24,830 bases of DNA from Nitrosarchaeum sp. (lineage in GTDB: Archaea > Thermoproteota > Nitrososphaeria > Nitrososphaerales > Nitrosopumilaceae): assembly GCA_018334095.1 (NCBI GenBank), contig JAGXTE010000001.1, positions 30,001 through 54,830 of the forward strand, read 5' to 3'. The notes under the pieces are model-generated. The model searched no databases, was not told where the DNA came from, and saw nothing but the letters and a program-made list of their open reading frames with translations. The translations under genes and the position numbers were made by a program. Within the stretch, counting starts at the first letter, position 1; the number at the start of each line of letters is the position of its first letter. Positions 5,515 to 24,830 of this stretch are shown piece by piece.

Positions 5515-5551
5515 TAGGACATGGGATTATGGAACAAACTTAAGGGTTTGG

Positions 5552-7871: not shown

Positions 7872-7944
7872 AACAGTTTTTCCAAAGTTTGACACTAGAA
7901 TAATCATTTAGAATATTTATTAACACAAATTCACAATATACCAC

Positions 7945-8349: not shown

Positions 8350-8441
8350 ACGGTCATTAACCTTCATTGTTAATATTTAAACTGGGTGCTGTTTTTTTCA
8401 AAAAAATCTAGGATTTAATCAGTGCTTCAAAGTAAATCTAG

Positions 8442-9773: not shown

Positions 9774-9848
9774 ACTTGAAATTTTATTTTCTTTTTTTAA
9801 ATGAAATGATCTTAGCAAAAAGATGTACGTCATGATATTTCTAAATTT

Positions 9849-10334
9849 TTAATCAGAATCCAACGGTTGAGTATAATCGTCTTCAGCATTTGCACCTTCA
9901 GATTTTTTTCCATTTCTTCGTGAAATTTTTTGAAAATGAGGAATACGTGGAGTAAGTGCACATACCACAATTCCAATAATTGCAAGAAAGTAATATTCAA
10001 ATCCAATAGCCATACCAATGGAGGCTGCAAACCATATGCTTGCAGCTGTTGTGAGATTGTAGATGTCTCTTCCTCCTTTTATTATCATGCCTGCCCCCAA
10101 AAATCCTATTCCACCAACAACATATGCTGCAATTCTTGTTGTGGATGCAGGATCAACCTGTGAGGACAAAAATGTGAATACCATTGAACCGCATATGACA
10201 AGAGTGTGAGTGCTTATCCCAGCTGGTTTGCCACGACTTTCTCTTTCAATGCCTATTATTATACCTGCAAGCAATGAAAAACCAAAACCAATTAAAATTC
10301 GAATCTCCGTTTCGGTGATAAAATCTTGAATCAA
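9849..10334 (-). CDS. MgtC/SapB family membrane protein
   Basis: LLAGIIIGIERESRGKPAGISTHTLVICGSMVFTFLS matches the MgtC family signature region. The start is TTG. Confidence 0.8.
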   Translation of the reverse strand: MIQDFITETEIRILIGFGFSLLAGIIIGIERESRGKPAGISTHTLVICGSMVFTFLSSQVDPASTTRIAAYVVGGIGFLGAGMIIKGGRDIYNLTTAASIWFAASIGMAIGFEYYFLAIIGIVVCALTPRIPHFQKISRRNGKKSEGANAEDDYTQPLDSD

Positions 10335-10629
10335 CTATTTCCGATTCGGATTGATTGAGCATAAAAAATTTACGGAATTTAAATTGTTACAGTGGATATT
10401 AAAAAAGTTTTAGATGTTGACATTAGTTTGCTATGGCATTTCCATTAAACAATTTTTTAATTTACATAAAGTATGTTCAAGATTAACTGAAAATACGAGA
10501 TAATTAAAGTTGATCTTGTGTATATTATAAAATATTACAGCAATCACGATATGCATCGATTAGAAACTATTTTTGATTCTGACTTTTCATAAATCCTTAA
10601 TTTCTATTAGATGTCATAAATAAATTTGA

Positions 10630-11040
10630 ATGAAAAAGATAAAGAATTTATGCAAAATAATGAATTTAAAATCATCTATGAAAGAAATAACTCCAAATGA
10701 CATACTAAAAGATCATACTCCAAATGTCAAAAACCTGGTAAAACAATTGCGTAAATTCATTTTAAATACGATCCCAGAAGTTTATGAAAAGGCATTACCC
10801 GGATGGCATGCAATTGGATTTAGACATCCAGAGGGAGGACATTTTTGTGCAATATTCCCATTCAAAGATTCGGTAAAACTTTATTTTGAATATGGAGTAC
10901 ATCTAAAAGATCCTCATAGAGTATTAGAAGGAAATACAAAACAAGTGCGTTACATTACATTTAAAAAAATTACAGATATTCAAGAGATAATTCTAAAAAG
11001 CCTTGTTCAACAATCAATACTCCATCTTAGTAGAAAATAA
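10630..11040 (+). CDS. DUF1801 (YdhG-like) domain protein
   Basis: Matches the pattern ..LVKQLRKFILNTIPEVYEKALPGWHAIGFRHPEGGHFCAIFPFKDSVKLYFEYG... The start may be an internal Met (MKEITPND). Confidence 0.55.
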   Translation: MKKIKNLCKIMNLKSSMKEITPNDILKDHTPNVKNLVKQLRKFILNTIPEVYEKALPGWHAIGFRHPEGGHFCAIFPFKDSVKLYFEYGVHLKDPHRVLEGNTKQVRYITFKKITDIQEIILKSLVQQSILHLSRK

Positions 11041-11068
11041 CACATCTTCAACACTCCAATTCATATCC

Positions 11069-11119
11069 ATCATTGTGTACCGTCTATTTTCTTGCCTAAA
11101 GGAGGGGCTTTGCCTTTTT
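11069..11119. repeat. degenerate copy of the casposon right TIR (footprint of an earlier insertion)
   Basis: atcattgtgtaccgtctattttcttgcctaaaggaggggctttgccttttt aligns with the right TIR atcatctagttacctgtctaaatccacacctaaaaagggggcattctattttt at roughly two-thirds identity. Shared blocks are atcat, acc-gtcta, cctaaa, ggggc and ttttt. It abuts the left TSD copy in the same way the real right TIR abuts the right copy. Confidence 0.6.
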
Positions 11120-11132
11120 ATTCTCTATCGAT
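11118..11132. repeat. target-site duplication, left copy (ttattctctatcgat)
   Basis: Exact 15-bp match to 22831-22845. Identity extends to 18 bp (11115-11132 = 22828-22845) because both are preceded by ttt, so the TSD/TIR boundary is ambiguous and the TSD is 13-15 bp. Confidence 0.85.
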
Positions 11133-11185
11133 AAAAATAGAATGCCCCTCTTTTGGGCGTGATTTTAGACATGTAACTAGATGAT
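11133..11185. repeat. casposon left terminal inverted repeat
   Basis: The reverse complement of aaaaatagaatgcccctcttttgggcgtgattttagacatgtaactagatgat matches 22780-22832 at 46/53 positions. Confidence 0.85.
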
Positions 11186-11244
11186 ATGAAAAAGTATGAT
11201 TTGTTGGAAATATCTTAAGTAACCTTGAATATTATCTCAAATAA

Positions 11245-11814
11245 TTGTTATCTGAAATTTATTTTAAAGAATTTCTGAAAAACCCATTTTTTTGGTGGAG
11301 TGCTTTCATAGGAATTATAACAACTTGGATTTCATTTGAACCATTTTTTAGAATTGTTGAAGCAATTTTGTTAGAACAACTGTATGTTCCAATCTTGTAT
11401 GGATGTGTAGGATTATCTCTCTATCTAATGATTTATCCAATAAAGAGCAGATTGAGAAACCTGAAACTTCAGAAAGAAACTAAAAAAGAATTTCTTGTTT
11501 ATACATTTATGATAGTAGCAATAATTACAAATACCGTATACTTTTCATCAGATCCAGCTTTTATGTTAACAAAGGCACAGAGTCAAATTGTATCTGATAA
11601 AGTAATTTTAGAAGAAGTGGGGGACCTAAAATTATGGGCAGAATATCTTGTGTTGCCTTTTCTTTATGCAATCATGTTAGCACAGAGTAGAAAACTCTTG
11701 TATGGAAATGAAGAAATGAAATTTGACAATATCGAAAGTAGCTGGAAAATATCTATTATCATTACAATACTTGTAGGCGGTGCATATCTTTTGTTTAAAT
11801 TAGTGTCTGGATGA
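11245..11814 (+). CDS. polytopic membrane protein (hypothetical), immediately upstream of cas1
   Basis: 189 aa with a TTG start and four to five hydrophobic helices. Its stop at 11812-11814 lies 1 nt before the Cas1 TTG start, so co-transcription is likely. Confidence 0.5.
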   Translation: MLSEIYFKEFLKNPFFWWSAFIGIITTWISFEPFFRIVEAILLEQLYVPILYGCVGLSLYLMIYPIKSRLRNLKLQKETKKEFLVYTFMIVAIITNTVYFSSDPAFMLTKAQSQIVSDKVILEEVGDLKLWAEYLVLPFLYAIMLAQSRKLLYGNEEMKFDNIESSWKISIIITILVGGAYLLFKLVSG

Positions 11815-11815
11815 T

Positions 11816-12886
11816 TTGACGCTTAAAGGCCATTCAAACCATTACAACATAAAATTCCTCAAAGGATACGGTCATTCCATATCTGTTAAAGATTCAAAGA
11901 TAATCCTCAAAGATTGTCATGATCCTTTCACTCCTCCAAACATTGAATCATGGTACATCAAAAGTATGCCATATGAAAAAATTGTTTTGCAAGGAAAAGG
12001 ATACATCTCGACTGATGCTTTAGCCTTACTTTCTGAGAATAATCGAAATGTCATTTTATTAGATAATCATGGAAAACCTGTAACCTATCTAAATCCGGTA
12101 ATGGAGTCTCTAACTGCAACTAGAAACAGAATTGCTCAATACGATACATTTCGTAATCCGGAGAAATGCCAATTTTTACAGAGACAAATTGTAAAGTCAA
12201 AACTAGAATCTCAAATTAAATTCCTCAAACTAACTGAGCGAGAGGAAATAAAAGAAGCCATAGAAAAACTAGAAACTCATTTGACTAATCTAGATCATTT
12301 CACTTCAATTAGTAACGAATCAAAGACATCTCATATCTACTTTAGAGCATTTGCAAAAATAATTCCAGAGAGATATGAGTTTCATTCTAGAAACCCATCG
12401 TATGTAGGATTGGCAAAAAACAAAGCTACTGATATTATCAATGCATTACTAAACTATGGTTATGCAGTACTAGGTGGAGAAATTTCCAAGTTTATCAACG
12501 GATTTGGGCTTGATGCATACTATGGATTTTATCATAAATCTCACACTGGTTTTCAGCCTCTAGTTTATGACATGATGGAACCATTTAGGTGGCTAGTCGA
12601 TTATACCGTATTTCGAATTGCAAACATCAAAGACCACAAGCAGAGAATTAGGCTTGATGAATTTACTCATACTAGAGACGGAATTATAGTAATGGAGTAT
12701 AATTTGATCAGGAAATTTCTAGAGTTACTTGAAAGAACATTCCAGTCTGAAAGAAGATATGGGTTTAGACATGGTGCAAAAACAAAAGATGGGTTGAAAA
12801 ATGTTCAAGAGATTACGATTGCAAAGATTACAGTTCAAAATTTAGTAGAGTATTGTTTAGGAAAACAAAAAGACTTTAGAATCTAA
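11816..12886 (+). CDS. cas1: Cas1-family integrase (casposase)
   Basis: Cas1 signature blocks are NESKTSHIYF (E168), INALLNYGYAVL, DAYYGFYH (H240) and LVYDMMEPFRWLVD (D252/E255). The N-terminal beta-rich region (YNIKFLKGYGHSISVKDSKIILKD) is typical of Cas1. The start is TTG. Confidence 0.9.
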   Translation: MTLKGHSNHYNIKFLKGYGHSISVKDSKIILKDCHDPFTPPNIESWYIKSMPYEKIVLQGKGYISTDALALLSENNRNVILLDNHGKPVTYLNPVMESLTATRNRIAQYDTFRNPEKCQFLQRQIVKSKLESQIKFLKLTEREEIKEAIEKLETHLTNLDHFTSISNESKTSHIYFRAFAKIIPERYEFHSRNPSYVGLAKNKATDIINALLNYGYAVLGGEISKFINGFGLDAYYGFYHKSHTGFQPLVYDMMEPFRWLVDYTVFRIANIKDHKQRIRLDEFTHTRDGIIVMEYNLIRKFLELLERTFQSERRYGFRHGAKTKDGLKNVQEITIAKITVQNLVEYCLGKQKDFRI

Positions 12887-13212
12887 GGATTTACTTCTAT
12901 CTCTTGTTGTTCCCAGTATTTCATTAAATCCCAATTGGCATCTTTAATGTTGTCCTGATATTTTGATCTTTCTTTCCAATCTTCTACTGTTGAAGCACAT
13001 TTATTTTTTAGAAATGTTTCAATAATCTCTTTACCTTCTTCAGTTGTCATTGAATCACTATAGGTTTTATCGCCCCATTTATCGTATTGTTTAGCACAAT
13101 CAAAAGTTAGAGTACTTACAATTTCATTACTATTGTTGGAGACAAATTGAATAGACAATACTGCAATCACAGAGCAAACAACTGCTATTGCTATAATCAC
13201 AACAGGTTTCAT
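12883..13212 (-). CDS. small signal-anchored/secreted protein (hypothetical)
   Basis: 109 aa with an N-terminal hydrophobic helix (MKPVVIIAIAVVCSVIAVLSI). It makes a 4-nt convergent overlap with the cas1 stop. Confidence 0.45.
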   Translation of the reverse strand: MKPVVIIAIAVVCSVIAVLSIQFVSNNSNEIVSTLTFDCAKQYDKWGDKTYSDSMTTEEGKEIIETFLKNKCASTVEDWKERSKYQDNIKDANWDLMKYWEQQEIEVNP

Positions 13213-13245
13213 TATTTTTTCAAGGTATCTTGTTCAAATAAGGAT

Positions 13246-13581
13246 TTAGTAATGTGACCTTCTTGTGTCATTAGAATCATGTGTCCAGTGATTGTGATTT
13301 CTGCCACAGTTTGTACACATGCAACAGTTACAATGTTCTTTTGCCATGTTTTTTAATCCATCCCATAGTTTTTTTTGTAAAATCATTGCCATTCCAATTA
13401 CAATTAGACCAATAACAACTGGAAGGGTTTGAGAATTTGGATATTTTAAATCATATAATGAAATGATAAACCCAATCGCTACTAATATTATTCCAACAAA
13501 CTGGATTTTTGTCTTTAATTTTATCTTTTTTTTGTATTGATTATTTTTATTATGGCTTCTTTTTCTACGCCCAAAACCCAT
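13246..13581 (-). CDS. small membrane protein with Cys/His-rich C-terminal tail (hypothetical)
   Basis: 111 aa with a basic N-terminus, two TM helices, and the tail HCNCCMCTNCGRNHNHWTH. Confidence 0.45.
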   Translation of the reverse strand: MGFGRRKRSHNKNNQYKKKIKLKTKIQFVGIILVAIGFIISLYDLKYPNSQTLPVVIGLIVIGMAMILQKKLWDGLKNMAKEHCNCCMCTNCGRNHNHWTHDSNDTRRSHY

Positions 13582-13618
13582 GATTTTGTAAATATTTTAT
13601 GAACTTAAAATTTTTTGT

Positions 13619-13933
13619 TTGAGAAATCTATTTGATATAGTAACTCATAGTAAATTCATGCCTACTTTCAGTGATTTTGATGCAAATAAAAGACATGAAG
13701 AATCTTTACAAAATGACAAAATTTTGAAAGATGGTCTAGCCGAACTACTTTCAAAAATACAAGATTTAACAGATAAATTAGATAAATATGAGACTCGAAA
13801 TTCTGAATATCTTAGAAAATTACTTTTGATGGTTTCGGAGTTATTTCAGCAAGGCAAAATCAATATCGATACATTTAATCGATTAGATGAATTTCTTCAT
13901 GACTGGCTTGATGAAAGTCTAGATTCTAAATAG
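13619..13933 (+). CDS. hypothetical helical protein
   Basis: 104-aa ORF with a TTG start (alternative Met at MPTFSDFD). No family recognised. Confidence 0.4.
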   Translation: MRNLFDIVTHSKFMPTFSDFDANKRHEESLQNDKILKDGLAELLSKIQDLTDKLDKYETRNSEYLRKLLLMVSELFQQGKINIDTFNRLDEFLHDWLDESLDSK

Positions 13934-14059
13934 AATATTAGTTGGTAATTAATAAAAATAATTATTTTAAAAATGTGATTATTTATTGGAATGAATATTT
14001 TGAATCTTATGATGTTTTAAATAATTAAAAATATAAAATAAAATTTTGAAAAAAATGAA

Positions 14060-14797
14060 TTAGTGTTTTTGTTTATATTTTTTTATTGGTTTTATAAAAT
14101 CATCAACAAACATTTCTAACATTTTTGGATCAAGTCGAAAGGATTCAGCAAATAATCGTGCAAACACCAACCCTCCAAGTAAATCAAACGAGGATGACCC
14201 TTTATCACTTAGTGAATCTAAAACTTGTTTCTTATATTTAGTAATTTGTTTAGTCATAGTAGTAAGTTTACGCTTACCGGAAACCCTACTGACCATCATC
14301 GACTGCATTTCATATATTGAAATCCAATGCAAAAACTTCATTACTTCTTCTACTTTTGTTGAATCATCTGCATCAGAAGATATTGTTTTCAAAATTCCTG
14401 TGGTGCCTATTTTGATATTTTCCATTGTTTCTATAAACTCCTCAACTTGTTCATCAGACATAGTTGTAATTTTTGAATTTATAGTGTAAATTGTGTTGTT
14501 TCTTGCAATGACGTGTTTTATCACGATTTTATTTTGGACTAATTCATCTAATATTTCTCGAAAAATTCGTTCAGAACAAACCTTTTTGTCAATCACGATT
14601 ATTCTTTCTAATTCTCCATATCGAATGCTGTCGGTATTTTTTAACACCGTATTGATTTCATCTCGTGCCTGATTTCGTATTGTACCGTATTGCATATACT
14701 GTACCGTATAATTTCTACCGTTATAACTATTGCAATAACGTAAAGTTGGCATGAAATGTGGGAAGATTGGTAGAACATCTACCAAAAAACAAACCAA
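14060..14797 (-). CDS. putative winged-helix transcription regulator
   Basis: The wHTH-like segment is INTVLKNTDSIRYGELERIIVIDKKVCSERIFREILDELVQNKIVIKHVIARNNTIYTI. The real start is probably ATG 14695 (MQYGTIRNQ...), because the longer ORF would overlap the divergent gene at 14751. Confidence 0.55.
   Translation of the reverse strand: MVCFLVDVLPIFPHFMPTLRYCNSYNGRNYTVQYMQYGTIRNQARDEINTVLKNTDSIRYGELERIIVIDKKVCSERIFREILDELVQNKIVIKHVIARNNTIYTINSKITTMSDEQVEEFIETMENIKIGTTGILKTISSDADDSTKVEEVMKFLHWISIYEMQSMMVSRVSGKRKLTTMTKQITKYKKQVLDSLSDKGSSSFDLLGGLVFARLFAESFRLDPKMLEMFVDDFIKPIKKYKQKH
14646..14725. promoter_or_regulatory. cluster of accgtat direct repeats at a divergent promoter (operator-like)
   Basis: accgtatt at 14646 and 14684, accgtata at 14703, accgttata at 14717. 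A perfect 10-mer tgtaccgtat occurs at 14681-14690 and 14700-14709, 19 bp apart. The two copies fall in different reading frames of the minus-strand ORF, so this is a DNA-level repeat. Confidence 0.45.
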
Positions 14798-14996
14798 ACT
14801 CAGTCATTCAGATGCAGTTTCAACTGATTTTGGAGTAAGGAAGATCAGCAATCAAAATTTTTCCAAAGTGATTGCACTTCCAAAAACTGCAATAGAAAAT
14901 CTTGGTGGAGATTCAACTGAAATGAAAGTTGAACTAATACAAGAAAATGGAGAAAAATTCATCAAACTTTCTCCAATTAGAGGTGATAATTTTTGA
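14751..14996 (+). CDS. AbrB/SpoVT (MazE-like) DNA-binding domain protein
   Basis: VRKISNQNFSKVIALPKTAIENLGGDSTEMKVELIQENGEKFIKLSPI resembles the SpoVT-AbrB looped-hinge-helix domain. Confidence 0.55.
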   Translation: MKCGKIGRTSTKKQTKLSHSDAVSTDFGVRKISNQNFSKVIALPKTAIENLGGDSTEMKVELIQENGEKFIKLSPIRGDNF

Positions 14997-15328
14997 GTAC
15001 AACGCAAATACCATACATTTGCTGGGGAGAATACAAATCCAAAGACCAAAACAACCCAGATAGATTAGATATCGAAGTAACTAGTTTAGAGCAGTTTGAA
15101 AGTGAACTAACAACAAATGTTCATGTCAAACAAAAGATTCAAGGAGAATGTCAAGAAAGAATTCTACCGTTAAAGTCTCATGAATCGCCAAACAATTCAT
15201 TGTTAAAACAATGGAATGATCTAGTCAAAAGAAAACGAATCATAGTCGGAAGCAAACTGGTGATTCACACATATCTTGGAATTTCAAAGCATGGTAGAAC
15301 AATTCGAAAATTCCATGTAGAGGTTTAA
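14993..15328 (+). CDS. hypothetical protein
   Basis: 111-aa ORF with a TTG start. It overlaps the previous stop by 4 nt, which suggests operon-style coupling. Confidence 0.45.
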   Translation: MSTTQIPYICWGEYKSKDQNNPDRLDIEVTSLEQFESELTTNVHVKQKIQGECQERILPLKSHESPNNSLLKQWNDLVKRKRIIVGSKLVIHTYLGISKHGRTIRKFHVEV

Positions 15329-15347
15329 TCCTCTTTTTTCTTTTGAT

Positions 15348-15656
15348 ATGAGCGATAAAGATAAACTTCTAGAACAACTTGATGCCTTAAAATTATTTCC
15401 AAACAATAAACATGTAAAGGAACTACGAAAACAAATCAAATCAAAATTAGATAAATTGAAAAATAAAAAACCTAAAGAAAAAATACAAAAACAAACCAGA
15501 GCAGGCAAGTTAAGAAGATACCACAACTATATTAGACAAATTAGAAACAACTTTCCCAATCTATCATACAACCAGATTAGAAGTCAACTATCTCAAAGAA
15601 GACAAGGAAAACAGGTATCAATTCCTGATGTGATATGGCAGAATCCATCCCCGTAA
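15348..15656 (+). CDS. small highly basic protein (hypothetical; terminal-protein or DNA-binding candidate)
   Basis: 102 aa, K/R-rich, overlapping the pPolB start by 22 nt. Confidence 0.5.
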   Translation: MSDKDKLLEQLDALKLFPNNKHVKELRKQIKSKLDKLKNKKPKEKIQKQTRAGKLRRYHNYIRQIRNNFPNLSYNQIRSQLSQRRQGKQVSIPDVIWQNPSP

Positions 15657-17419
15657 CTGATTACAAGAATCTGGCCAAATTACGCACAAAAAGGCCACAA
15701 AACAGAGATTCTGCACAATCAAAGATTCGCAAAATCAATGCACTTGATACAGAAACCTACAATGGGGATATCTTTCTAATAGCAGACTCTGATGGTCTAT
15801 ATCTTGATGATATAACTTCAGATAATGTAATTCACTTTTTATTTTCAAAAAAATATCAAAATGCTTGGAATTTTTTTTATAATTTGCAATATGACGCTGA
15901 AGTGATACTAAAGTTATTGGGAAATGAACTATTTCGATACAAACAAACTGGAAAATTAGAATTCCTATACAAACAATTCAAAATAGAGTACATTCCATCA
16001 AAATTACTAAGAATAAAAAAAGGCCACCACAGCGTATTATTTTTTGATATTGCTCAGTTTTACACAAAATCATTAGTTGATGCATATGAGCAAAACATTG
16101 GAGAATTACCCAAGACATATTTGGAGATAAAAGAAAAACGCTCTCACTTTACAAAGCGATTTTACAATCACAACAAGAAAAAAATTAGAAGTTACTGTAT
16201 TACTGATTGTATTCTTACAAAGAAACTATCTGAGCACTGGATTGCACTGTTTAATCAAGCATTTTCGTTTTATCCTGCAAAATGGTCTTCATCAGGATAC
16301 TTGGCAGAAAAAGTACTAATCAACAATGGAATATTTTTTCCAAAATTTGATTCTATACCATACCAAATTCAGGATTTAGCGTTTAGATCATACTTTGGGG
16401 GAAGATTTGAAATGATAAAGCGGGGATTTATTGGCAAAGCGTACCTTTATGATATTAATTCAGCATATCCACATGCCATATCTCAACTCCCTGATCTAAA
16501 TGATGGTAGATGGATTAAACGAAAATCCATTTATGATAAAGCAAAACTTGGTTTCTTTAAGATTCTAGCAAACATCCCAGATGATAAAATCATCCCACCA
16601 TTTGCCTTTAGAGCAAATCATAACATTGTATTTCCATCTGGAAAATTCATTACATATTGCACATTGCCTGAACTTTTAGCCTGCAATGAGCCTAGTTTTT
16701 ACAAAATTTTGGAAGGATACCAGTTTGTGCCAAATTCTAATGTCTTACCATACAAAGATTTCATAGAAAAATTATATCAAAAACGTCTAAAACTAAAACA
16801 AGAAAACAATCCATTACAGCAACCAATCAAAATTATCTTAAATTCCATTTATGGCAAAACAGGACAAAAAATAAACAGAATAATTGGAAATTTATTTAAT
16901 CCCGTAATATTTGCAAGCATCACAGGACATACTAGAGCACAACTATACCAATTCATTATAAAAAACAATCTAGAAAAAAACACTATAGCATTTGCCACAG
17001 ATTCTATCTGCATAACAAAAAAACTTGACATCAACTCTACTAAACTTGGAGAGTTTTCATTTGATGGAAAAGCAAATGATGTTTTTTATTTACAAAATGG
17101 ATTTTATAGATTCAATGGAATGTGGAAGCAACGTGGATTTGGTAAACTAGGATCTAGAGAAATAGAACATCTAGATACTAAAGAAAAAAATGGCAAGCTA
17201 ATTGCAAAGATGCAAGTTTTACGAAACCCTAGATTACGAAGCTCAATAATTCAAAACAATATTAAAAATATTGGAAATATCTCTACAATTAGTAGAGAGA
17301 TTAATCTTAATGCTGATAGGAAAAGACTGTGGCTTGATACAATTACTAACATAAATCAAAAATCAGCTAATGAGTCAGTACCGATTTCTTTGAATCATTT
17401 TACTAAAGAGCAAATATGA
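15635..17419 (+). CDS. polB: protein-primed family B DNA polymerase (pPolB)
   Basis: Motifs are ExoI ALDTETY, ExoII NLQYDAEVI, ExoIII YCITDCILT, Pol A YLYDINSAYPHA, Pol B KIILNSIYGKTGQ and Pol C FATDSICI. The short 594-aa size is typical of protein-primed PolBs. Confidence 0.9.
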   Translation: MAESIPVTDYKNLAKLRTKRPQNRDSAQSKIRKINALDTETYNGDIFLIADSDGLYLDDITSDNVIHFLFSKKYQNAWNFFYNLQYDAEVILKLLGNELFRYKQTGKLEFLYKQFKIEYIPSKLLRIKKGHHSVLFFDIAQFYTKSLVDAYEQNIGELPKTYLEIKEKRSHFTKRFYNHNKKKIRSYCITDCILTKKLSEHWIALFNQAFSFYPAKWSSSGYLAEKVLINNGIFFPKFDSIPYQIQDLAFRSYFGGRFEMIKRGFIGKAYLYDINSAYPHAISQLPDLNDGRWIKRKSIYDKAKLGFFKILANIPDDKIIPPFAFRANHNIVFPSGKFITYCTLPELLACNEPSFYKILEGYQFVPNSNVLPYKDFIEKLYQKRLKLKQENNPLQQPIKIILNSIYGKTGQKINRIIGNLFNPVIFASITGHTRAQLYQFIIKNNLEKNTIAFATDSICITKKLDINSTKLGEFSFDGKANDVFYLQNGFYRFNGMWKQRGFGKLGSREIEHLDTKEKNGKLIAKMQVLRNPRLRSSIIQNNIKNIGNISTISREINLNADRKRLWLDTITNINQKSANESVPISLNHFTKEQI

Positions 17420-17634
17420 AAATAACGAAAATCATAAGATAATTATTTATCTGCACGAAATATGCGAGATTAAGCTTTTGAAGCAAATTACGCATGAATT
17501 TTGATGCTTTTATGGTATTTTCATGTACGAAAATAAAACAGTTATTCACGAGAGAGTTACGAAGAAGAGCTAATCTCGCAACCTGCGAATGAAACTTTCA
17601 TGAGTGAGAAATACGAAGAAGAGCTTTTGAAGTA
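17420..17634. other. 215-bp repeat-rich non-coding spacer between convergent genes
   Basis: The 14-mer tacgaagaagagct occurs at 17558-17571 and 17612-17625. The 11-mer agcttttgaag occurs at 17473-17483 and 17622-17632. An imperfect inverted repeat pairs tgcgagattaagct (17463-17476) with agctaatctcgca (17568-17580). acgaaa(a/t) motifs recur throughout. Confidence 0.5.
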
Positions 17635-18489
17635 TTATTGTAATGAAAAACCACACTTATTGCAAAATGAAGAATCTGTTGGATTAACATTTTTACATTG
17701 TGTGCAGATGGTTGTAAATTTATGCCCACATTTATTACAAAACTTTGCATCAATTGGATTAAAATTATTGCATGATGTACACTTGATTTCTTGCTCGCGT
17801 TTCTGTTTTTCATTATCTTGTTTTCTTAGTTTATCACTCCATTCTTTTTGGGTTTTGATTTGATATTTTACCAGTTTAGCCAATCCGTTCGGATCTGGTA
17901 CAGCATAAAACGTAAAAACAATTTCTCCTTCTGCCATAATATTTACATCGCCAAACGTTTGACTTTCACCAGTACTAAAACTACCTGAACTTCCTACAAA
18001 TGTTCCACTAGCACCAATTCCTGCAAATGTTCCCTCACGTTGAGATTCAGATATTCTTTTTTGATTATTGACTATAACATCAATGTTTTCAGATAATGCA
18101 TACATTGACATCTGATGTTCTTTTAAATCATAAAAATAACATCTGTATTCTGTTAAAGCGTCATACGCTCTTAGTGTTTTATTGACTAACCCTTCTTCTT
18201 TTTTGCGATACCATAAAACTTGTTCATTTTTACATTTTATTGGAAGAAATGGATTTACCCAAAAAGCTTCAATTCTTTTTGTGTCATCATTTTGAAATAA
18301 TACTGGATACTCGGATGTGATATTTTTTTCTTCTAATAATTGTCGACTTTTTTCGATAGATAGAGCCATGTCTCTCTTTGATTTTTCTGGAACCTCTGAA
18401 GCTGGAAGTAAAAATATATCTTCAAGTTCAAATTTTTCTTCATTTTTTTTAACTTCTATCTGCTTTTCTTTTTTACCAAATAATCCCAT
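17635..18489 (-). CDS. double-zinc-ribbon protein with uncharacterised N-terminal domain
   Basis: The C-terminus CTSCNNFNPIDAKFCNKCGHKFTTICTQCKNVNPTDSSFCNKCG is two tandem CxxC..CxxC ribbons. The N-terminal ~220 aa are unassigned. Confidence 0.65.
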   Translation of the reverse strand: MGLFGKKEKQIEVKKNEEKFELEDIFLLPASEVPEKSKRDMALSIEKSRQLLEEKNITSEYPVLFQNDDTKRIEAFWVNPFLPIKCKNEQVLWYRKKEEGLVNKTLRAYDALTEYRCYFYDLKEHQMSMYALSENIDVIVNNQKRISESQREGTFAGIGASGTFVGSSGSFSTGESQTFGDVNIMAEGEIVFTFYAVPDPNGLAKLVKYQIKTQKEWSDKLRKQDNEKQKREQEIKCTSCNNFNPIDAKFCNKCGHKFTTICTQCKNVNPTDSSFCNKCGFSLQ

Positions 18490-18607
18490 AAATTTGAGAA
18501 CATATACAAATTCTTAAGGATTTATTCATTTGTTATATTCATACTTCATTCGTACAAATTTTATGAATTTACGATAAACTAAAATTCATAATTTTTTATG
18601 AAACCAT

Positions 18608-19420
18608 ATGGGTTGGAAAAAACTTTTAGGTGATATTAAAGAAAAATCAGAAAAATTTGTTGAAGAAAAAAAGAAAGAGCGCAATTTAAGACGAATAGAA
18701 CAACAGGAACAAGCAGAACAAAGAGCAGAGTATGAGAATACTGTTAACAAATTACTGGATAAATTTGAAATTCCAGATCTTGATGAATTTTTAATGAAAT
18801 ATCTTAACAATAAACCAGAACCTAAAATAGAAAAAGACCCAGATATAGGAAAAATAACTAAGATACGACCAGGTAGACGAGAATATCTTGATTTTGTTTG
18901 GAGTAATTTTAATGAAAAAGATATCACATATGATCAACTAAAGAATTTTGCTTTAAAAAAGAAAATTATTACTCCAAGTTTCTTTGGAAACGAATCAGAT
19001 GACACTTATGAAAAAAGTGACTTTGAATCAATTATTAATGCAATTCGAGTTGGATTTGAACCTGAAAAAATTACAGATGAAGAACATCTTGAAGCACAAT
19101 TAATGATATTTTTGAAAGCAAAATTTCCAGACAGAAAAATAAGAAGGCAAGTTACAATTCAAGGAAATGACCGACTCGATATTTTAATTGATGATAAATA
19201 TGCCTTTGAACTTAAAGTCCCAAAACAAAGAACAGATTTAAGAAATCTAGGTGCTCAATTAGAAGAATACAAAGAAATGTATCCAAACGTATGTGGATTG
19301 ATCTTTGAAGATATCAATGAAGGAAATCTTTCACAAGATATCATGGATTATGTTGATAAATACAAAAAAAATTATGGGATATCTACAATAGTTTTAGGCG
19401 GTACCAAACGATATTCATAA
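18608..19420 (+). CDS. PD-(D/E)xK (RecB-like) nuclease-fold protein with charged N-terminal region
   Basis: Ordered motifs are EEHLEAQL (E), RLDILID (D), FELKV (ExK) and AQLEEY (QxxxY), the RecB-family/restriction-endonuclease-like pattern. There is no Cas4-type Cys cluster. Confidence 0.55.
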   Translation: MGWKKLLGDIKEKSEKFVEEKKKERNLRRIEQQEQAEQRAEYENTVNKLLDKFEIPDLDEFLMKYLNNKPEPKIEKDPDIGKITKIRPGRREYLDFVWSNFNEKDITYDQLKNFALKKKIITPSFFGNESDDTYEKSDFESIINAIRVGFEPEKITDEEHLEAQLMIFLKAKFPDRKIRRQVTIQGNDRLDILIDDKYAFELKVPKQRTDLRNLGAQLEEYKEMYPNVCGLIFEDINEGNLSQDIMDYVDKYKKNYGISTIVLGGTKRYS

Positions 19421-19485
19421 TAATACAACATCAGTTATTCTTTGAGAATTATTCTTGGTAAATTATAAGGATTTATGAAATTAAG

Positions 19486-19513
19486 ATTGTGTTTTTTTAA
19501 TCAAAAACACAAT
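19486..19513. promoter_or_regulatory. perfect 11-bp stem hairpin/palindrome (terminator or operator)
   Basis: attgtgttttt (19486-19496), a ttaatc loop, then aaaaacacaat (19503-19513), followed by acttttt. It lies 66 nt after the stop of 18608-19420 and 30 nt before the ATG at 19544. Confidence 0.5.
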
Positions 19514-19543
19514 ACTTTTTCAATAGAATCCCAATAATAGAGC

Positions 19544-20248
19544 ATGGCCATAATCTATGGCATTTCAGAGGCTACAAAAGAATTCCTAAAGAAATTACCA
19601 AAGGAAATCAAATCCCTTGAAGATATTGAAAAAATACATCAAAAATTATCCCAAGAGTATGATGAACTAGAAAACAAGGGATTAATTGCTAAATTTAGTC
19701 GTTGGAATAAAAAAAGACAAATAAAAAAAATTGAAGAAAATACTGACAGTAAAGAACACCGAGGTGCACGAGGTGAAGTTCTAGCATTAGAGAAACTATC
19801 AGAACTACCTGATGATTATCACATATTCTGTGGAGTAAACAAGGTACTCAAAGATTATGTCACCTATCGAAGAAAACGAAATCTAAAGTCAGCCCAGATG
19901 GACTTTGTCGTAGTATCAAAAAGGGGTGTATCAGTAATTGAGGTAAAAAACTGGAGTTCACATTATTACAATAATTACTATGGATTGCCACCACATGAAC
20001 AAGTAGACAGAGCAGGTCGTGTCTTGTGGATATCGCTAAAGTCTTCTTGGTTTGCACCAAAAGATCCACCAATTTCTAGTGTATTACTAGCAATTCAAGG
20101 AAATATCAACTATGATGATAATTATGGATATGTCATTGTAAAGAATCTAAACAATATCAATTACTATTTGCAAAATAGAGAAATACAGTTTTCTGAAAAA
20201 GAAGTATCTAGATTAATTGGTAGAGTCAAAGGAGACATAACAACATGA
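19544..20248 (+). CDS. NERD (nuclease-related domain) protein
   Basis: GARGEVLALEKLSELPDDYHIF...AQMDFVVVSKRGVSVIEVKNWS matches the NERD pattern G..GE...L...D.vvv...gv.viEvKn. Confidence 0.7.
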   Translation: MAIIYGISEATKEFLKKLPKEIKSLEDIEKIHQKLSQEYDELENKGLIAKFSRWNKKRQIKKIEENTDSKEHRGARGEVLALEKLSELPDDYHIFCGVNKVLKDYVTYRRKRNLKSAQMDFVVVSKRGVSVIEVKNWSSHYYNNYYGLPPHEQVDRAGRVLWISLKSSWFAPKDPPISSVLLAIQGNINYDDNYGYVIVKNLNNINYYLQNREIQFSEKEVSRLIGRVKGDITT

Positions 20249-20349
20249 TTGTTTTATAGTACATATAATTATTAACAAAGATATTTTGCATGTTAGATTA
20301 AATCATGTAAAAAATTAGAATTTTCAAACATATCAAATAATCAGTAATT

Positions 20350-21309
20350 TTGGTTAGAAAAATCATGTCTTCATTTCTTCTAAAAAAGAAATCTAAAAAA
20401 TCATTTTTAGAAGGAATTCAAATTTTAGAATATTCTACAAGAGAAAATTATCGGTCAGCACTTAAACAATTTGAAACATTTTGTAATTTTTATTATAATA
20501 AAACTATTCAATATATAATAGATGAAATAAAATCATTAAAACAAGAACAAAAAGATGAAGCGTTTCTTGGAATGTTGCAAGAATTTGTTAATTGGATGAA
20601 AAAAACAACATTGGCAAATACTACAATTCAAAAATACTTTCAAATTATTATTTATTATTTTAGCTATCATGGGATTAGAGCACATCCTATAGATCTACGA
20701 CAAAATATCAAACTCCCAAAAAAGTTTAAAGAAAAACTTCATTCATTAACCAAAGAAGAAATAATTCAATTATTCAAATTCACTCCTCAATCAAGACAAA
20801 TGTTGTATCTAGTATTGATTGGATCTGGTATGAGAATTAGAGAAACTGTAGCATTACGAAAAAAAGATTTTGATTTAGACTATCCAAAAAGAATCAAAAT
20901 AGAAATACCGGCTCAATTTACAAAGACAAAAACTGCACATACAACATATGTTTCAAAAGAGGCCGAATCTCTCCTAAAACCACACTTAGAATCCATAAAA
21001 AATAACGATTTAGTATTTGCAACAAATTCTATTCCATACCATGCATCTATGACTGAAATAGGGGCTTTTGCCAGATATAGAGAAAAAGCAGGATTGACTC
21101 GAATTTATGAATCAACTAAACGACATCATATATCACTTCATTCTTTTAGATCGTATTTTTTTATTCGTGCTAGACGAATACATGATACAGATATTGCTCA
21201 TGCAATGATAGGTCATTCTACGTATCTTGATATGTATGACAGAAAAGAAGACGATGAAAAATTAGACTTGTTTCTAGAAGTTGAAAATGAACTAAAAATT
21301 TGCGGATAA
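20350..21309 (+). CDS. tyrosine recombinase / phage-type integrase
   Basis: Catalytic pattern is GMRIRETVALRKKDF (R), SLHSFRSYF (HxxR) and IGHSTYLDMYDR (H...Y), with an N-terminal SAM-like core-binding region. The start is TTG 20350 or ATG 20365. Confidence 0.8.
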   Translation: MVRKIMSSFLLKKKSKKSFLEGIQILEYSTRENYRSALKQFETFCNFYYNKTIQYIIDEIKSLKQEQKDEAFLGMLQEFVNWMKKTTLANTTIQKYFQIIIYYFSYHGIRAHPIDLRQNIKLPKKFKEKLHSLTKEEIIQLFKFTPQSRQMLYLVLIGSGMRIRETVALRKKDFDLDYPKRIKIEIPAQFTKTKTAHTTYVSKEAESLLKPHLESIKNNDLVFATNSIPYHASMTEIGAFARYREKAGLTRIYESTKRHHISLHSFRSYFFIRARRIHDTDIAHAMIGHSTYLDMYDRKEDDEKLDLFLEVENELKICG

Positions 21310-21359
21310 GAACAATTGGTAGGATATTGTTTTTATTCATGTTTACTATGTGAGCCATA

Positions 21360-22778
21360 ATGTCAATGCTATTGTTTGGGGCAGGTGCGTCTAGACCGTT
21401 TGGGATTCCAACAATGCAAGAAATGGTAGATGATTTTGAAAGGGAATTATCTCAATCCACAATTCATTTTACATTTTACCAAGATATCAAAAAATCATTA
21501 GTAGAGCAATATGGACCAAATAAAACAGATATTGAATCAATTCTATCTGTACTCCAAGGGATTGGAGAAAATGTCACTCCAAGTGATTTAGGTCATTTCA
21601 CATATTATTATATTTCAAAAAATTGTTCAAAAAAGAGTTTTTCTGAAGAGGATATAACTAAAGCAAAAGAAATTACAATTAAACTAAAAGATTACATAAA
21701 AACAAAATGCCAGGTAAATTCAAAAGATCTTACAAGTATTTATTCAAAAACATATTTGCCATTATTCCAAAATTTAGCAGGAACAAAATTTCTCTATCAT
21801 GGAAATTTTGAACTTGCCACTGAATGGAAAAGTTTTACAACAAATTATGATGACATTTTTGAAAGATTTTGGAGTAAATTTCAGGAACCCAATAGTCATT
21901 TTGAGAGACAGGGAACTTCAAATAACTATATTTTCAATTCAAATATAACTTTAGACAATCAATCATTATCGAAACTTCATGGTTCACTTGATTGGACAAG
22001 AATTAAGGATACAGATCAAATATTTCGTTCTGCACAAACTGGATTTAATACTCATGAAACAGAAGGAGATGTCATGTTATATCCAATTCAACAAAAAGAT
22101 CTATACCTTCATCCATGGTTTACGTTATTTCAAGACTTCAAAAAAAGTTTAGAAAAATTCAATCAATGGTATATAATTGGTTATGCGTTTAACGATGAAT
22201 TTATTTTAAATGTTATAAAAGAAGGTTTAACAAAAAAATCAAAAACAATGATTGTAATTAATCCTAATGCTGAAGTAATCAGAAATAAATTTCCAGATGT
22301 GCTTAGAAAACAAATTATTGCTTTACCCTATAAATTTGGAGATCAGTATTTTGTCAATAATTTTATTGAATTTCAAAGGAAAGTCAGAAACATAGAATTA
22401 TCTATCCAAACAAACGCTCAATGTTTTAAAATTGAATTCCCATTTAAAGTACATACAGAATATGTGCATAAAATTGAACATGGGTCTTGCGCTAATGCCA
22501 CTGTATTGCCTAACAACCATCAAGTTTTTGAATACAATACAGAAAAAGGTTCAGAAATTTCAATAACATTAAATGCAGATTTTGACTTTGATTATACACG
22601 TATTGAAAATTTGGATTTTACATTTATTTCAAATTCTAAAACTCCTGTTAAATGTACTATAAAAAACCAAAAACGAATTATTGACACTTGTACTCTAAAT
22701 GATTGGACACGTTTAAAAACTGATGAAAATTTTTTGATTAGAGTTAGAAGTGTTAGCTCACGTAATTTTCTTATCTGA
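21360..22778 (+). CDS. SIR2-like (SIR2_2 family) putative NADase with uncharacterised ~130-aa C-terminal domain
   Basis: Motifs are LLFGAGASRPFGIPTMQEMV, FTTNYDDIFE, LSKLHGSLDW and YIIGYAFNDEFI, as in defence-associated SIR2 domains. The stop lies 1 nt before the right TIR. Confidence 0.7.
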   Translation: MSMLLFGAGASRPFGIPTMQEMVDDFERELSQSTIHFTFYQDIKKSLVEQYGPNKTDIESILSVLQGIGENVTPSDLGHFTYYYISKNCSKKSFSEEDITKAKEITIKLKDYIKTKCQVNSKDLTSIYSKTYLPLFQNLAGTKFLYHGNFELATEWKSFTTNYDDIFERFWSKFQEPNSHFERQGTSNNYIFNSNITLDNQSLSKLHGSLDWTRIKDTDQIFRSAQTGFNTHETEGDVMLYPIQQKDLYLHPWFTLFQDFKKSLEKFNQWYIIGYAFNDEFILNVIKEGLTKKSKTMIVINPNAEVIRNKFPDVLRKQIIALPYKFGDQYFVNNFIEFQRKVRNIELSIQTNAQCFKIEFPFKVHTEYVHKIEHGSCANATVLPNNHQVFEYNTEKGSEISITLNADFDFDYTRIENLDFTFISNSKTPVKCTIKNQKRIIDTCTLNDWTRLKTDENFLIRVRSVSSRNFLI

Positions 22779-22779
22779 A

Positions 22780-22832
22780 ATCATCTAGTTACCTGTCTAA
22801 ATCCACACCTAAAAAGGGGGCATTCTATTTTT
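22780..22832. repeat. casposon right terminal inverted repeat
   Basis: atcatctagttacctgtctaaatccacacctaaaaagggggcattctattttt is the inverted partner of 11133-11185 (46/53). Its last 2 nt are shared with the TSD as drawn. Confidence 0.85.
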
Positions 22833-22845
22833 ATTCTCTATCGAT
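22831..22845. repeat. target-site duplication, right copy = last 4 codons plus stop of EF-2
   Basis: The reverse complement of ttattctctatcgat is ATC GAT AGA GAA TAA, which reads I D R E stop and matches the EF-2 C-terminus ...EEYIDRE. Confidence 0.85.
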
Positions 22846-24830
22846 GTATTCTTCGATTCCAGGAGGTGTTGGTGCCAATCCTTTTCTCTTTCTGATTTCT
22901 GCAATTGCAGTTGCTGCAATAGATTTTGGCAGTTCAGTCCATGCCTTAAAGGATGTATTCCATGTTGCACGTCCTGCTGTTTGTCCTCTCATTGCTTCAG
23001 ATAGTGTAAATGTTTCAGATGCTGGAATTTCACCGACAATAATACTTGCAGCTCCTTTTTGTTGCATGTCAAGCACTTTGCCACGTTTGCCAGAAAGAAC
23101 GGTAGCTACGTTTCCTACCAAGTCAGTTGGAACTCGGACCTCAATTGCAAGCATTGGCTCCAAGATTGTAGTTCCTGCAGTTAGTAACGCTCCCATGCAT
23201 GCACGTCTAGATGCCGGTCCCAGTTGTGAAAGACCACGGTGTGCAGTATCCTCGTGAGGTACAAAGTGAGTAAAGATGAATTTGCAGTCCCTCATCTGCT
23301 CTTTGCAGAGTGGGCCTTCTTTCATTACTTCCTCAAATCCAGAGTTGATAGAGTCAGTTGACTCTTGAATAAATTGAACACCTTTTGTTCCGTTGATCAT
23401 TACGTTTCCACGTGGGTCTAGTTTCATGATTCTCTTAATTGTATCAGTATCCCATCCAGCGCCCTTTAGAAGGTCAGCTACAACTTTTTTGTCTTTCATG
23501 TCGCTGATTTCACCAGTTCTTAGCATGTGTGCGATTGCTGGCTCCAATGGCTCTACTTTCATGAAAATCTTGTTGTGTCTGTTTGGAGATTTTGACATGA
23601 TTGGCTCACATGTTCCTTTGACGGTTTCTCTGTAATTGATAAGAGGTTCAGATGTTATGATTTCTACTTTGGCGTCTTGAATTCTATGTGTTGCAACATC
23701 AAGGTGCAACACACCCATTCCAGCTACTAGTGTTTCGCCAGATTCTTCATCGATTTTTACTACAAGGTTAGGATCTTCAATTGTTAGTTGTTTGAGGACC
23801 TCGACAAGTTTTGGCAAGTCTTTTGGATGTTTTGGTTCTATTGCAACTTGCACGACAGGTTCTGATACATATTTGACTCCTTCAAACATTGGAATTCCTT
23901 TGACAGATGAAATTGTATTTCCTGCTCTAGCTTCAGTTAATCCTAATAATGCTGGAATGTTTCCTGCACCAAGCTCACCGACTTGTTCTCTTTGGTTTCC
24001 CATGAAAAAGTTTACAGATTGAACTCTTCCCTCTCTTTTTGCATCGATAATGTTTATTGTTTGTCCGTCCTTTATTGTTCCAGAGAATAATCTACCAATT
24101 GCAACAGGCCCTGCTGCAGGATCTAAGACCATGTTGACGACCATCATGATTGTTGGTCCGTCATCACTGCATGCCAAGAGTGCTTTACCAATATCAGATT
24201 CAAGGTCACCTTTCCAAATTTGAGGAATTCTGTACTTTTGAGCAACGTGTGGTGGTGGAACGTGTTTTACTACCATTCCCAACACTGCATCAGCCAAAGG
24301 AGCGCGTGCTACCAAATCTTCTACTTTTTCATTTTTGTAAGCATCAATGACATCTTTGAATGTAATGCCTTTTTCTTTCATGATATCTACGTTAAATGCC
24401 CATTTGTCTTTGGCAGAACCAAATGTGACGCTGGCATCTTGGATAGATACTTTCCATTTGTCTTTGTATTCAGGTTCAGCATAAGTGTCAACTAGTTGGT
24501 TAAAGCTAGACACTACACCTGCAAGTGTCTCTTGCATTTTTTCTGGTGTCAGACGTAATTCTTTGATTAGTCTGTCTACTTTGTTGATAAATAAAACTGG
24601 TCTTACTCTTTCTTCAAGGGCCATTCTTGTTACAGTCTCTGTCTGGGTCATGATTCCCTCGACTGCATCACATACTACAGTTGCGCCATCGATTGCCCTA
24701 AGACTTCGAATTACCCTTCCACTGAAATCTACGTGTCCGGGAGTATCAATCATGTTAATGACGAATTCTTTGTCTTTTTGTGTAAAGTGTAAAGTTACAT
24801 TTGCTTGGTAAATTGTAATTCCTCTTTCTT
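22831..24830 (-). CDS. fusA: translation elongation factor 2 (aEF-2), 5' end beyond window
   Basis: The track ORF starts at an internal Met, but the frame stays open upstream to the window edge (..ERGITIYQANVTLHFTQKDKEFVINMIDTPGHVDF..). It carries the G-domain DTPGH motif and the diphthamide-loop-like HEDTAHRGLSQ. Length and domain order are those of EF-2. Confidence 0.95.
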   Translation of the reverse strand, partial: ERGITIYQANVTLHFTQKDKEFVINMIDTPGHVDFSGRVIRSLRAIDGATVVCDAVEGIMTQTETVTRMALEERVRPVLFINKVDRLIKELRLTPEKMQETLAGVVSSFNQLVDTYAEPEYKDKWKVSIQDASVTFGSAKDKWAFNVDIMKEKGITFKDVIDAYKNEKVEDLVARAPLADAVLGMVVKHVPPPHVAQKYRIPQIWKGDLESDIGKALLACSDDGPTIMMVVNMVLDPAAGPVAIGRLFSGTIKDGQTINIIDAKREGRVQSVNFFMGNQREQVGELGAGNIPALLGLTEARAGNTISSVKGIPMFEGVKYVSEPVVQVAIEPKHPKDLPKLVEVLKQLTIEDPNLVVKIDEESGETLVAGMGVLHLDVATHRIQDAKVEIITSEPLINYRETVKGTCEPIMSKSPNRHNKIFMKVEPLEPAIAHMLRTGEISDMKDKKVVADLLKGAGWDTDTIKRIMKLDPRGNVMINGTKGVQFIQESTDSINSGFEEVMKEGPLCKEQMRDCKFIFTHFVPHEDTAHRGLSQLGPASRRACMGALLTAGTTILEPMLAIEVRVPTDLVGNVATVLSGKRGKVLDMQQKGAASIIVGEIPASETFTLSEAMRGQTAGRATWNTSFKAWTELPKSIAATAIAEIRKRKGLAPTPPGIEEYIDRE

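Follow-up and report, generated by a model that had tools for sequence, protein, structure and literature searches.

A family-1 casposon at the stop-codon end of a Nitrosarchaeum EF-2 gene

Gene content and boundaries of the element

The stretch of DNA analysed here (the window, 24,830 nt of contig JAGXTE010000001.1 from Nitrosarchaeum sp.) ends on its right side within the essential gene of archaeal elongation factor 2 (aEF-2, gene ef-2), and a large element with the features of a casposon adjoins the stop codon of this gene. The 3′ part of ef-2 occupies positions 22831–24830 on the minus strand and the gene continues beyond the window end; its TAA stop codon lies at 22831–22833, with the C-terminal end being ...PGIEEYIDRE*. 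A 640-aa open reading frame (ORF) is present at 22831–24753 on the minus strand, and the frame is uninterrupted to 24828. It matches TIGR00490 (aEF-2) with an E-value of 7e-214 over profile positions 90–718 of 720 and carries the full EF-G/EF-2 set of Pfam domains (GTP_EFTU, EF-G_D2, EFG_III, EFG_IV and EFG_C). The C-terminal 299 residues are 94–99% identical to those of Nitrosarchaeum and Nitrosopumilaceae genomes, which are the best public relatives; this identity, together with the synteny of the flanking genes, assigns the host to Nitrosarchaeum/Nitrosopumilaceae, that is, to the thaumarchaea.

The 15-mer TTATTCTCTATCGAT occurs in two exact copies in the window, at 11118–11132 and 22831–22845, and in no further copy when up to 2 mismatches are allowed. 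Its chance expectation is 0.06, and two or more matches were obtained in none of 100 shuffles; a search with 3 mismatches added just two unrelated sites (10350 and 20991), which is the chance level. Read on the minus strand, the right copy is ATC GAT AGA GAA TAA, i.e. I-D-R-E-stop, the terminus of the EF-2 ORF. The exact direct repeat in fact spans 18 nt (11115–11132 and 22828–22845). The longest inverted repeat of the region (11131–11185 and 22780–22834, 55 nt, 87% complementary) has the two repeat copies at its outer ends, and the 16 terminal bases AAAAATAGAATGCCCC of the terminal inverted repeats (TIRs) are perfectly matched at 11133–11148 and 22817–22832. With the boundaries discussed below, the left, EF-2-distal TIR lies at 11133–11185 (plus strand, 53 nt) and the right, EF-2-proximal TIR at 22780–22832 (minus strand), the first two A's of whose tip 5′-AAAAATAGAATGCCCC complete the EF-2 stop codon. 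The target-site duplication (TSD), with its 13-bp core ATCGATAGAGAAT, is placed at 22833–22845 (proximal copy, minus strand) from the symmetry of the TIR tips, the layout of tandem junctions and the homology with Nitrosopumilus koreensis, and at 11120–11132 (distal copy, minus strand) from the direct repeat. The element between them, here called casposon A, comprises 11,700 bp (11133–22832). The exact two copies, the TIGR00490 match and the TIRs bear out what the initial annotation had proposed from the letters alone, namely that the 15-mer represents the last four EF-2 codons plus the stop codon, duplicated at the ends of a casposon; it had also held that ef-2 keeps an intact 3′ end, and the ORF does end in IDRE* at the right copy.

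Casposon A encodes a predicted casposase of 356 aa, a Cas1 homologue (11816–12886, plus strand; PF01867, 3.5e-49, profile positions 7–282 of 283), which also matches TIGR00287 with 1.9e-46 and has the M. mazei casposase (6opm, 6.6e-27) as its best PDB match. The Pfam scan of this protein returned the Cas1 domain only, with no C-terminal helix-turn-helix (HTH) domain detected. Its N-terminal 110 residues are 71% identical (5e-52) to the family-1 casposase of NitSJ-C1, the sequence of which was taken from a machine-read supplement alignment, and show no significant similarity (E=1.5) to the N-terminus of the A. boonei casposase. Neither CRISPR array-like repeats nor Cas2 were found in the region. 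The second hallmark gene is an intact ORF of 594 aa for a protein-primed-type family B DNA polymerase (pPolB; 15635–17419, plus strand; PF03175 DNA_pol_B_2, 4.8e-23). Its best Pfam family is DNA_pol_B_2, 'organellar and viral', with the match to cellular Pol II being weak and partial, and it is 63–72% identical to the PolB of casposons at three loci in relatives (L002, L040 and L089). Directly upstream of pPolB lie two small conserved genes of 111 and 102 aa (14993–15656, plus strand), homologues of which are likewise placed in L002, L040, L084, L089 and L098. The core of family 1 is described as including 3 or 4 uncharacterized genes upstream of pPolB (PMC6563490), and two such small genes were traced here.

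A Cas1 protein apart from any CRISPR array, a family B polymerase, TIRs and a TSD together define the casposon superfamily, and all of them are present. The type of casposase, the protein-primed PolB, the thaumarchaeal host and the insertion at the ef-2 3′ end without disruption of the ORF are those of family 1. Family 2, the A. boonei type, is characterised by a casposase with a C-terminal HTH, by HNH nuclease and HTH genes in its core and by tRNA or intergenic targets; it does not fit, as no HTH or HNH domain was detected among the window proteins, and a tRNA target is ruled out, since the window contains no tRNA gene. By gene content and termini, casposon A is thus classified as a complete family-1 (thaumarchaeal, pPolB-encoding) casposon. 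Its cargo, all on the plus strand, consists of a NERD nuclease-like gene (19544–20248; Pfam NERD, 1.4e-11), a XerA-like tyrosine recombinase gene (20350–21309; Phage_integrase, 1.3e-10; NCBIfam recomb_XerA_Arch, 1.4e-16, below its cut-off) and a SIR2-like gene (21360–22778; SIR2_2, 2.2e-07; PADLOC defence SIR2 models, up to 7e-25).

The ef-2 target, the duplicated segment and the route of integration

The aEF-2 3′ end has been reported from the outset as the target of thaumarchaeal family-1 casposons (PMC4046053), was found again as the target of NitAR-C2 (PMC4779613) and is the commonest target of thaumarchaeal casposons (PMC6563490; Krupovic 2014, 2016, 2019). In one case, two family-1 casposons, NitNF5-C1 and NitNF5-C2, are inserted in tandem at the same ef-2 gene, and NERD and XerC-like genes are listed for NitNF5-C1 (PMC6563490). 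The family-1 casposase of N. koreensis performs target-dependent concerted integration into a reconstituted ef-2 target in vitro (PMC6614799); its TSD was mapped to the 13 bp ATTGATAAAGAGT, with a minimal leader TTT, key positions A1, A11 and T13, and a ruler ATAA (PMC8464041; Beguin 2019, Wang 2021).

To compare the target across relatives, EF-2 3′ ends were taken from 80 species-representative Nitrosopumilaceae genomes, of which 75 sites were resolvable and 74 public genomes were classified. The sequence following the stop codon was sorted into classes by regular expressions, except for three AAAAAGG(C/G)A-type tips (L058, L064 and L069), which were assigned by eye. A full TIR tip starts from T|AA of the EF-2 stop codon in 26 of the 74 genomes; the others have a tip relic of 8–11 nt only (9/74), an A-run only (8/74) or unrelated sequence (31/74). 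At many of the tip-bearing loci, Cas1 or PolB survives only in fragments. A perfect second copy of the genome's own EF-2 end downstream was found only in L002 (contig BQXB01000003.1) and L040 (contig JAILWJ010000001.1), whose flanks were read to 10 kb; in both, it stands at the far TIR of a complete element with Cas1 and pPolB, and no homologue of the tyrosine recombinase was found in either element. Insertions occur in both orientations, with Cas1 being EF-2-proximal in L002, L007, L091, L103, L106 and L108 and distal in the window and L040. The EF-2 ends ATCGATAGAGAATAA of three casposon-free genomes (L004, L005 and L017) are identical to the 15-mer of the window, so the possibility named in the initial annotation that casposon-free relatives would have a different ef-2 end does not apply. 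Across all 75 sites, positions A1, T2, G4, A5, A7, G10 and T13 of the 13-mer are invariant, in line with the I-D-(K/R)-E and the T of the stop codon encoded there.

The target in the window is laid out as GAAGAATAC-ATCGATAGAGAAT-AAAAA. The three bases preceding the 13-mer are TAC, a Tyr codon, and the tetramer corresponding to the ruler is ATAG; A1, A11 and T13 are all retained. These differences trace back to the host protein: EF-2 ends in EEYIDRE here and in NEFIDKE in the Nitrosopumilus hosts, which turns ATTGATAAAGAGT into ATCGATAGAGAAT and the preceding TTT into TAC. A TA(T/C) leader is found in half of the surveyed TIR-bearing sites, and hence the TTT requirement seen in vitro cannot hold for the casposases of this clade.

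What the sequences show directly is the repeat with its TIRs, the genes of the element, the identity of the target in relatives that lack an insertion and the recurrence of the same architecture in other genomes; we consider it very probable that the repeat is a TSD left by casposase-mediated, site-specific transposition of a complete family-1 casposon into the stop-codon end of ef-2. The Cas1-type casposase would recognise the conserved 3′-terminal coding sequence of ef-2, for which the EF-2 coding sequence further upstream would serve as a 'leader', a role that we infer from homology with the biochemically studied N. koreensis system and from the geometry of the junctions. The strand transfers on the two sides of ATCGATAGAGAAT would be staggered, most probably by 13 bp, and would join the 3′ ends of the TIRs to the target; gap repair would then duplicate the 13-mer. 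With a TIR tip beginning 5′-AAAAA, the EF-2-proximal copy would then read ...GAA T|AA AAA, so that the stop codon and the full ORF are kept. The distal copy would retain whatever sequence had previously lain downstream, which here was apparently already the TIR of an older casposon (TIR-B, described below). The same two lines of evidence suggest the order of insertion, and the junction before the arrival of casposon A, consisting of EF-2, one 13-mer and TIR-B, would have been GAATACATCGATAGAGAATAAAAAGGCAAAGCCCC.

Several points weigh against this interpretation. No allele of this very locus with a directly empty site was found: a 25-mer of TIR-B, used to look for an allele lacking casposon A, had 0 exact matches among the metagenome contigs scanned. 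The N. koreensis leader TTT and ruler ATAA are replaced by TAC and ATAG, so the published rules are not transferable unchanged. The activity of the casposase is a prediction from the protein sequence, and integration by the tyrosine recombinase that the element carries is conceivable in principle. The two TIRs are only 87% identical, and the A-runs make duplications of 13, 15 and 18 bp indistinguishable from the window sequence alone.

How long, then, is the duplicated segment? Perfect, symmetric TIR tips result only when the boundaries of the element are set to 11133 and 22832, and the duplication is then 13 nt long. Wherever tandem junctions are readable (the window, L002, L040, L089, L092 and L096), all of them have the form T5-N13-A5. 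At the sites with neither a TIR tip nor an A-run, the stop codon is mostly followed by non-A bases at positions +16 to +18; the A5 run therefore belongs to the casposon and travels with it. By this geometry and by homology with N. koreensis, the duplicated segment is most likely the 13 bp ATCGATAGAGAAT, in which case the duplication supplies I-D-R-E plus T and the A5 tip of the casposon supplies the AA of the stop codon. That the true duplication is 15 bp (or 18 bp), with the whole stop codon within the duplicated target, is in our estimation rather unlikely. Such a length would agree with the 18-nt exact repeat in the window and with the 21–22-bp repeats listed for NitAR1-C1 by earlier genome-based work, and a first insertion into a naive TAA-ending site would give an apparent 15-bp repeat. 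Against it stand the symmetry of the tips, the uniform tandem junctions and the mostly non-A bases after the stop codon at the sites with neither a TIR tip nor an A-run; moreover, when N. koreensis in vitro products were sequenced, the outer bases of the apparent 22-bp repeat turned out to be leader and spacer, with the TSD being 13 bp. The initial annotation had the right TIR begin directly after the stop codon. On the 13-bp register this is two bases off, as the final AA of the stop codon belongs to the TIR, while the ORF is intact whichever register applies.

Integrative elements classically restore the 3′ end of the gene that they target by recombination between attachment (att) sites. The direct repeats might thus be attL and attR, made by the tyrosine recombinase of the element (20350–21309) from the ef-2 3′ end and an identical attP on a circular form. 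The element does contain a Phage_integrase/XerA-like ORF, and thaumarchaeal integrase-driven elements target the 3′ ends of protein genes and re-use such sites in tandem (PMC6563490). However, integrative elements of this kind are recognised by att repeats, the need for an integrase and the lack of TIRs, whereas the repeats here adjoin 53-nt TIRs with perfect 16-nt tips, which is transposon geometry. The L002 and L040 elements have the same TIR/TSD layout at the same site but no integrase homologue, and the occurrence of both orientations relative to EF-2 is unexpected under att recombination. Furthermore, the family-1 casposase of N. koreensis suffices for site-specific integration into the ef-2 target in vitro (PMC6614799, PMC8464041), and a Xer-like gene has already been described as cargo of NitNF5-C1, itself a family-1 casposon (PMC6563490). 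A nested integrase element within the casposon was considered as well and rejected, no flanking direct repeats, nor any internal ones pointing to such an element, being found. We therefore hold an att origin to be highly improbable. A chance repeat is practically negligible as an explanation: in this AT-rich genome, short repeats in two copies are frequent, but none of the shuffles produced two copies even with 2 mismatches permitted, the positions of the copies coincide exactly with the outer ends of the region's longest inverted repeat, and the arrangement recurs in L002 and L040. The recurrence of the 15-mer at unrelated loci, which the initial annotation had named as a possible objection, was accordingly not seen in the window.

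The initial annotation further cited the Aciduliprofundum boonei casposon as a precedent for the use of the aEF-2 3′ end and suggested conservation or convergence of target recognition across casposon families. This precedent was mis-attributed and is corrected here. The A. boonei casposon is flanked by CCCCACCTACGAGGAG and is integrated at the 3′ end of a tRNA-Pro gene; euryarchaeal casposons, that of A. boonei included, overlap the 3′ ends of tRNA genes (PMC4046053), and NitAR1-C1 is explicitly stated to differ from the A. boonei casposon by its integration in ef-2 (PMC6614799). Both families target conserved genes at their 3′ ends without disrupting them, but no support was found for a shared aEF-2 target; ef-2 is the published target of family 1 (PMC4046053, PMC4779613, PMC6563490), and it is to the family-1 casposase, not to that of A. 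boonei, that the N-terminus of the window casposase is similar. Since the A. boonei target is tRNA-Pro, there is no cross-family conservation or convergence to explain, and the idea that A. boonei (family 2) and the thaumarchaeal pPolB casposons have the aEF-2 3′ end in common is scarcely tenable.

Among known systems, casposon A resembles the Nitrosopumilus family-1 casposons (NitAR1-C1/NitSJ-C1, NitAR2-C1 and NitNF5-C1/-C2) in its Nitrosopumilaceae host, its HTH-less Cas1 casposase, the small conserved genes upstream of pPolB, the TIR tip AAAAATAGAAT(C/G)CCCC and the insertion at the ef-2 stop end with the ORF preserved. Its TIR tip equals the published start of the NitAR1-C1 TIR, ATAAAAATAGAATCCCCC, except for one base. 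It further shares the tandem arrangement at ef-2 with NitNF5-C1/-C2 and the NERD and XerC-like cargo with NitNF5-C1. Apart from the EF-2 terminus, it differs in its size (11.7 kb, compared with 7.6–8.2 kb for the first three family-1 casposons described) and in its SIR2-like gene, SIR2 not being mentioned in the 2019 survey (PMC6563490). The N. koreensis AR1 target has the same succession of leader, 13-bp TSD and A-run, the same A1, A11 and T13, and a TTCTA motif in the TIR; it differs in leader and ruler.

AciBoo-C1 of A. boonei (family 2) is likewise a Cas1-driven, TIR-bounded, self-synthesizing transposon that leaves the 3′ end of a conserved gene undisrupted, with a TSD of ~14–15 bp and leader-dependent recognition. 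In contrast to casposon A, it uses tRNA-Pro, has a casposase with a C-terminal HTH and an N-terminus of no significant similarity, and encodes another type of PolB. Tn7 at attTn7, an analogy drawn in PMC4046053, also recognises the 3′ end of an essential gene (glmS), leaves the gene intact and forms tandem arrays and islands; unlike casposons, it employs the unrelated TnsABC+D machinery and inserts downstream of the recognised sequence, without duplication of the final codons. Spacer integration by Cas1–Cas2 in CRISPR shares with casposons a homologous integrase, the duplication of a leader-adjacent segment and a ruler-type second cut, but here a whole 11.7-kb element is inserted, with neither Cas2 nor a CRISPR array being present.

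Probable older insertions on the distal side of casposon A

Immediately beyond the distal TSD copy, a degenerate third TIR (TIR-B; 11069–11119, minus strand) was found, whose tip AAAAAGGCAAAGCCCC reads leftwards from 11119. It forms a 51-nt direct repeat with 75% identity to the right TIR plus TSD and aligns with both TIRs of casposon A. A scan with a looser TIR motif gave 3 matches in the window, TIR-B included, against 0.02 expected, while a strict search for the TIR tip matched the two ends of casposon A only; a local alignment score equal to that of TIR-B was attained by 8 of 9766 background windows. The TIR-B type of tip stands directly at the EF-2 stop codon in L064 and L069; in L002 and L040, it comes after the complete casposon and its distal TSD and is in turn followed by a second pPolB. 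TIR-B thus appears to be the relic of an older casposon (casposon B) that shares the distal TSD copy. The initial annotation had treated the left copy of the 15-mer as an orphan duplicate of the EF-2 terminus. That it is the distal duplicate of this end stands; it is not, however, a simple orphan beside the native flank, since it adjoins the TIR-B relic.

Between TIR-B and the chromosomal backbone lie ~7 kb of non-syntenic genes (4076–11068), which by Pfam include SnoaL-like, cupin, Na+/H+ exchanger, MgtC and DUF1801 genes as well as two paralogous 134-aa ORFs (7467–7871 and 7945–8349). Homologues of the Na+/H+ exchanger, 83–84% identical, stand beside decayed casposons in L013, L015 and L106. 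This segment is probably debris or cargo from earlier insertions at the same hot spot; no further TSD or TIR that would delimit the older island on its outer side was found in the window. In L001, a cupin gene lies just 1.65 kb from the EF-2 stop codon.

Homology of the backbone with relatives ends at window positions 4072–4075. The conserved neighbour of ef-2, a 194-aa gene at 3443–4027 (minus strand) that is syntenic in relatives, begins 0.1–0.25 kb past the EF-2 stop codon in unoccupied genomes (e.g. L029, L030, L038, L050 and L074). As synteny returns only at positions up to 4075, upstream of this gene, the whole of 4076–22832 is taken as inserted DNA. Read from the EF-2 side, the locus is thus best described, from its junctions and synteny, as a tandem array in which casposon A and the relic of casposon B have one 13-mer in common between them, followed by ~7 kb of accumulated genes and then the ancestral neighbour.

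The intact element stands beside EF-2 and the decayed one distally, which fits leader-proximal insertion as in CRISPR arrays, although this is a single locus and the distal elements of L002 and L040 run past the fetched 10-kb flank. We tentatively offer a more general model, which, taken with all its parts jointly, we regard as possible but rather doubtful. The ef-2 stop site would be a polarised, CRISPR-array-like acquisition locus, in which new casposons enter the EF-2 ('leader')-proximal 13-mer and older ones are pushed distally, decaying to solo TIRs and cargo islands, with scars in about a third to a half of Nitrosopumilaceae species. The stop codon would come from the A5 tip and not from the duplication, and, in step with the C-terminus of the host EF-2, Nitrosarchaeum-clade casposases would have shifted their leader and ruler requirements (TAY and ATAG for TTT and ATAA).

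For family-1 casposons, the choice of target, the preservation of ef-2, the tandem re-use of the site and the Xer/NERD cargo are already published, the target has been dissected biochemically, and the integration assay proposed in the initial annotation has been performed on a close relative, with the N. koreensis casposase. The discovery value of the locus is therefore small. What this Nitrosarchaeum-type instance adds is a natural variant of leader and ruler, which could be used as a specificity test for family-1 casposases, enzymes of interest as site-specific integrases and as models for the origin of CRISPR adaptation; the survey, in turn, shows how commonly the ef-2 stop codon of Nitrosopumilaceae bears the scars of casposon ends.

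A conserved element, GTCGATATTGATAAATA...GACCTGTATATACTAGGTCGACCTAG, with an inverted repeat is located upstream of the 194-aa gene (window 4028–4075) and occupies the same position in L005–L018; it is probably a promoter or operator. Its part GTCGATATTGATAAATA (~4060–4075) was considered as an old TSD copy and rejected, the resemblance probably being coincidental, as it is conserved in unoccupied genomes such as L012.

Further EF-2 ends and casposases in relatives

A Cas1-anchored search of metagenome contigs yielded 43 loci; a Cas1-based scan of viral contigs returned no relatives. Casposases at least 66% identical to that of the window adjoin the EF-2 end (L083, L091, L103, L106 and L108), whereas a clade with 56–62% identity adjoins the stop codon of a different gene, ending in EFTK(H/Q)ITDNL* (L089, L093, L094 and L099). 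At the latter gene, a 13-nt duplication ACTGACAATCTCT is seen, again with a T|AAAAA junction (L089, 1–176 and 11110–11160; L093, L094 and L099, upstream of Cas1). In L089, a second TIR follows the distal copy, hence the arrangement is a tandem. The 53-aa C-terminal fragment of the ITDNL* gene had no Pfam match; it may resemble the C-terminus of isocitrate/isopropylmalate dehydrogenases. The passages of the casposon literature considered here do not name this gene as a casposon target.

At nine loci (L012, L016, L017, L028, L049, L067, L072, L079 and L080), the EF-2 stop codon is followed by the first 8–11 nt of a TIR tip, e.g. AAAAATAGAAT or AAAAAGGCAAA, and then by unrelated sequence, with no full TIR tip and no Cas1 or PolB homologue being present. 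These short tip relics are probably scars of deleted casposons. In L051, L060 and L076, the EF-2 terminus is IDKV* or IDKA* rather than IDKE*, directly beside TIR-like sequence in L051 and L060; an insertion or repair that was imprecise may have changed the last codon.

Orphan EF-2-like 3′ ends of 24–27 nt, which exceed the length of the 13-bp TSD, stand beside a TIR tip in L090 (~35–65) and L113 (~6790–6820); they encode ..N(D/E)(F/Y)IDNQ* and have stop codons before them, and no EF-2 homologue was found in the 18-kb locus of L113. In L092 (~40–90) and L096 (~100–150), head-to-head TIRs of two tip types are exactly 13 nt apart, enclosing the near-palindrome ACAGATTATCTGT. No target gene was identified there, with stop codons lying upstream in L096, while this 13-mer followed by AA would close an ORF ending in ...TIFTDYL*.

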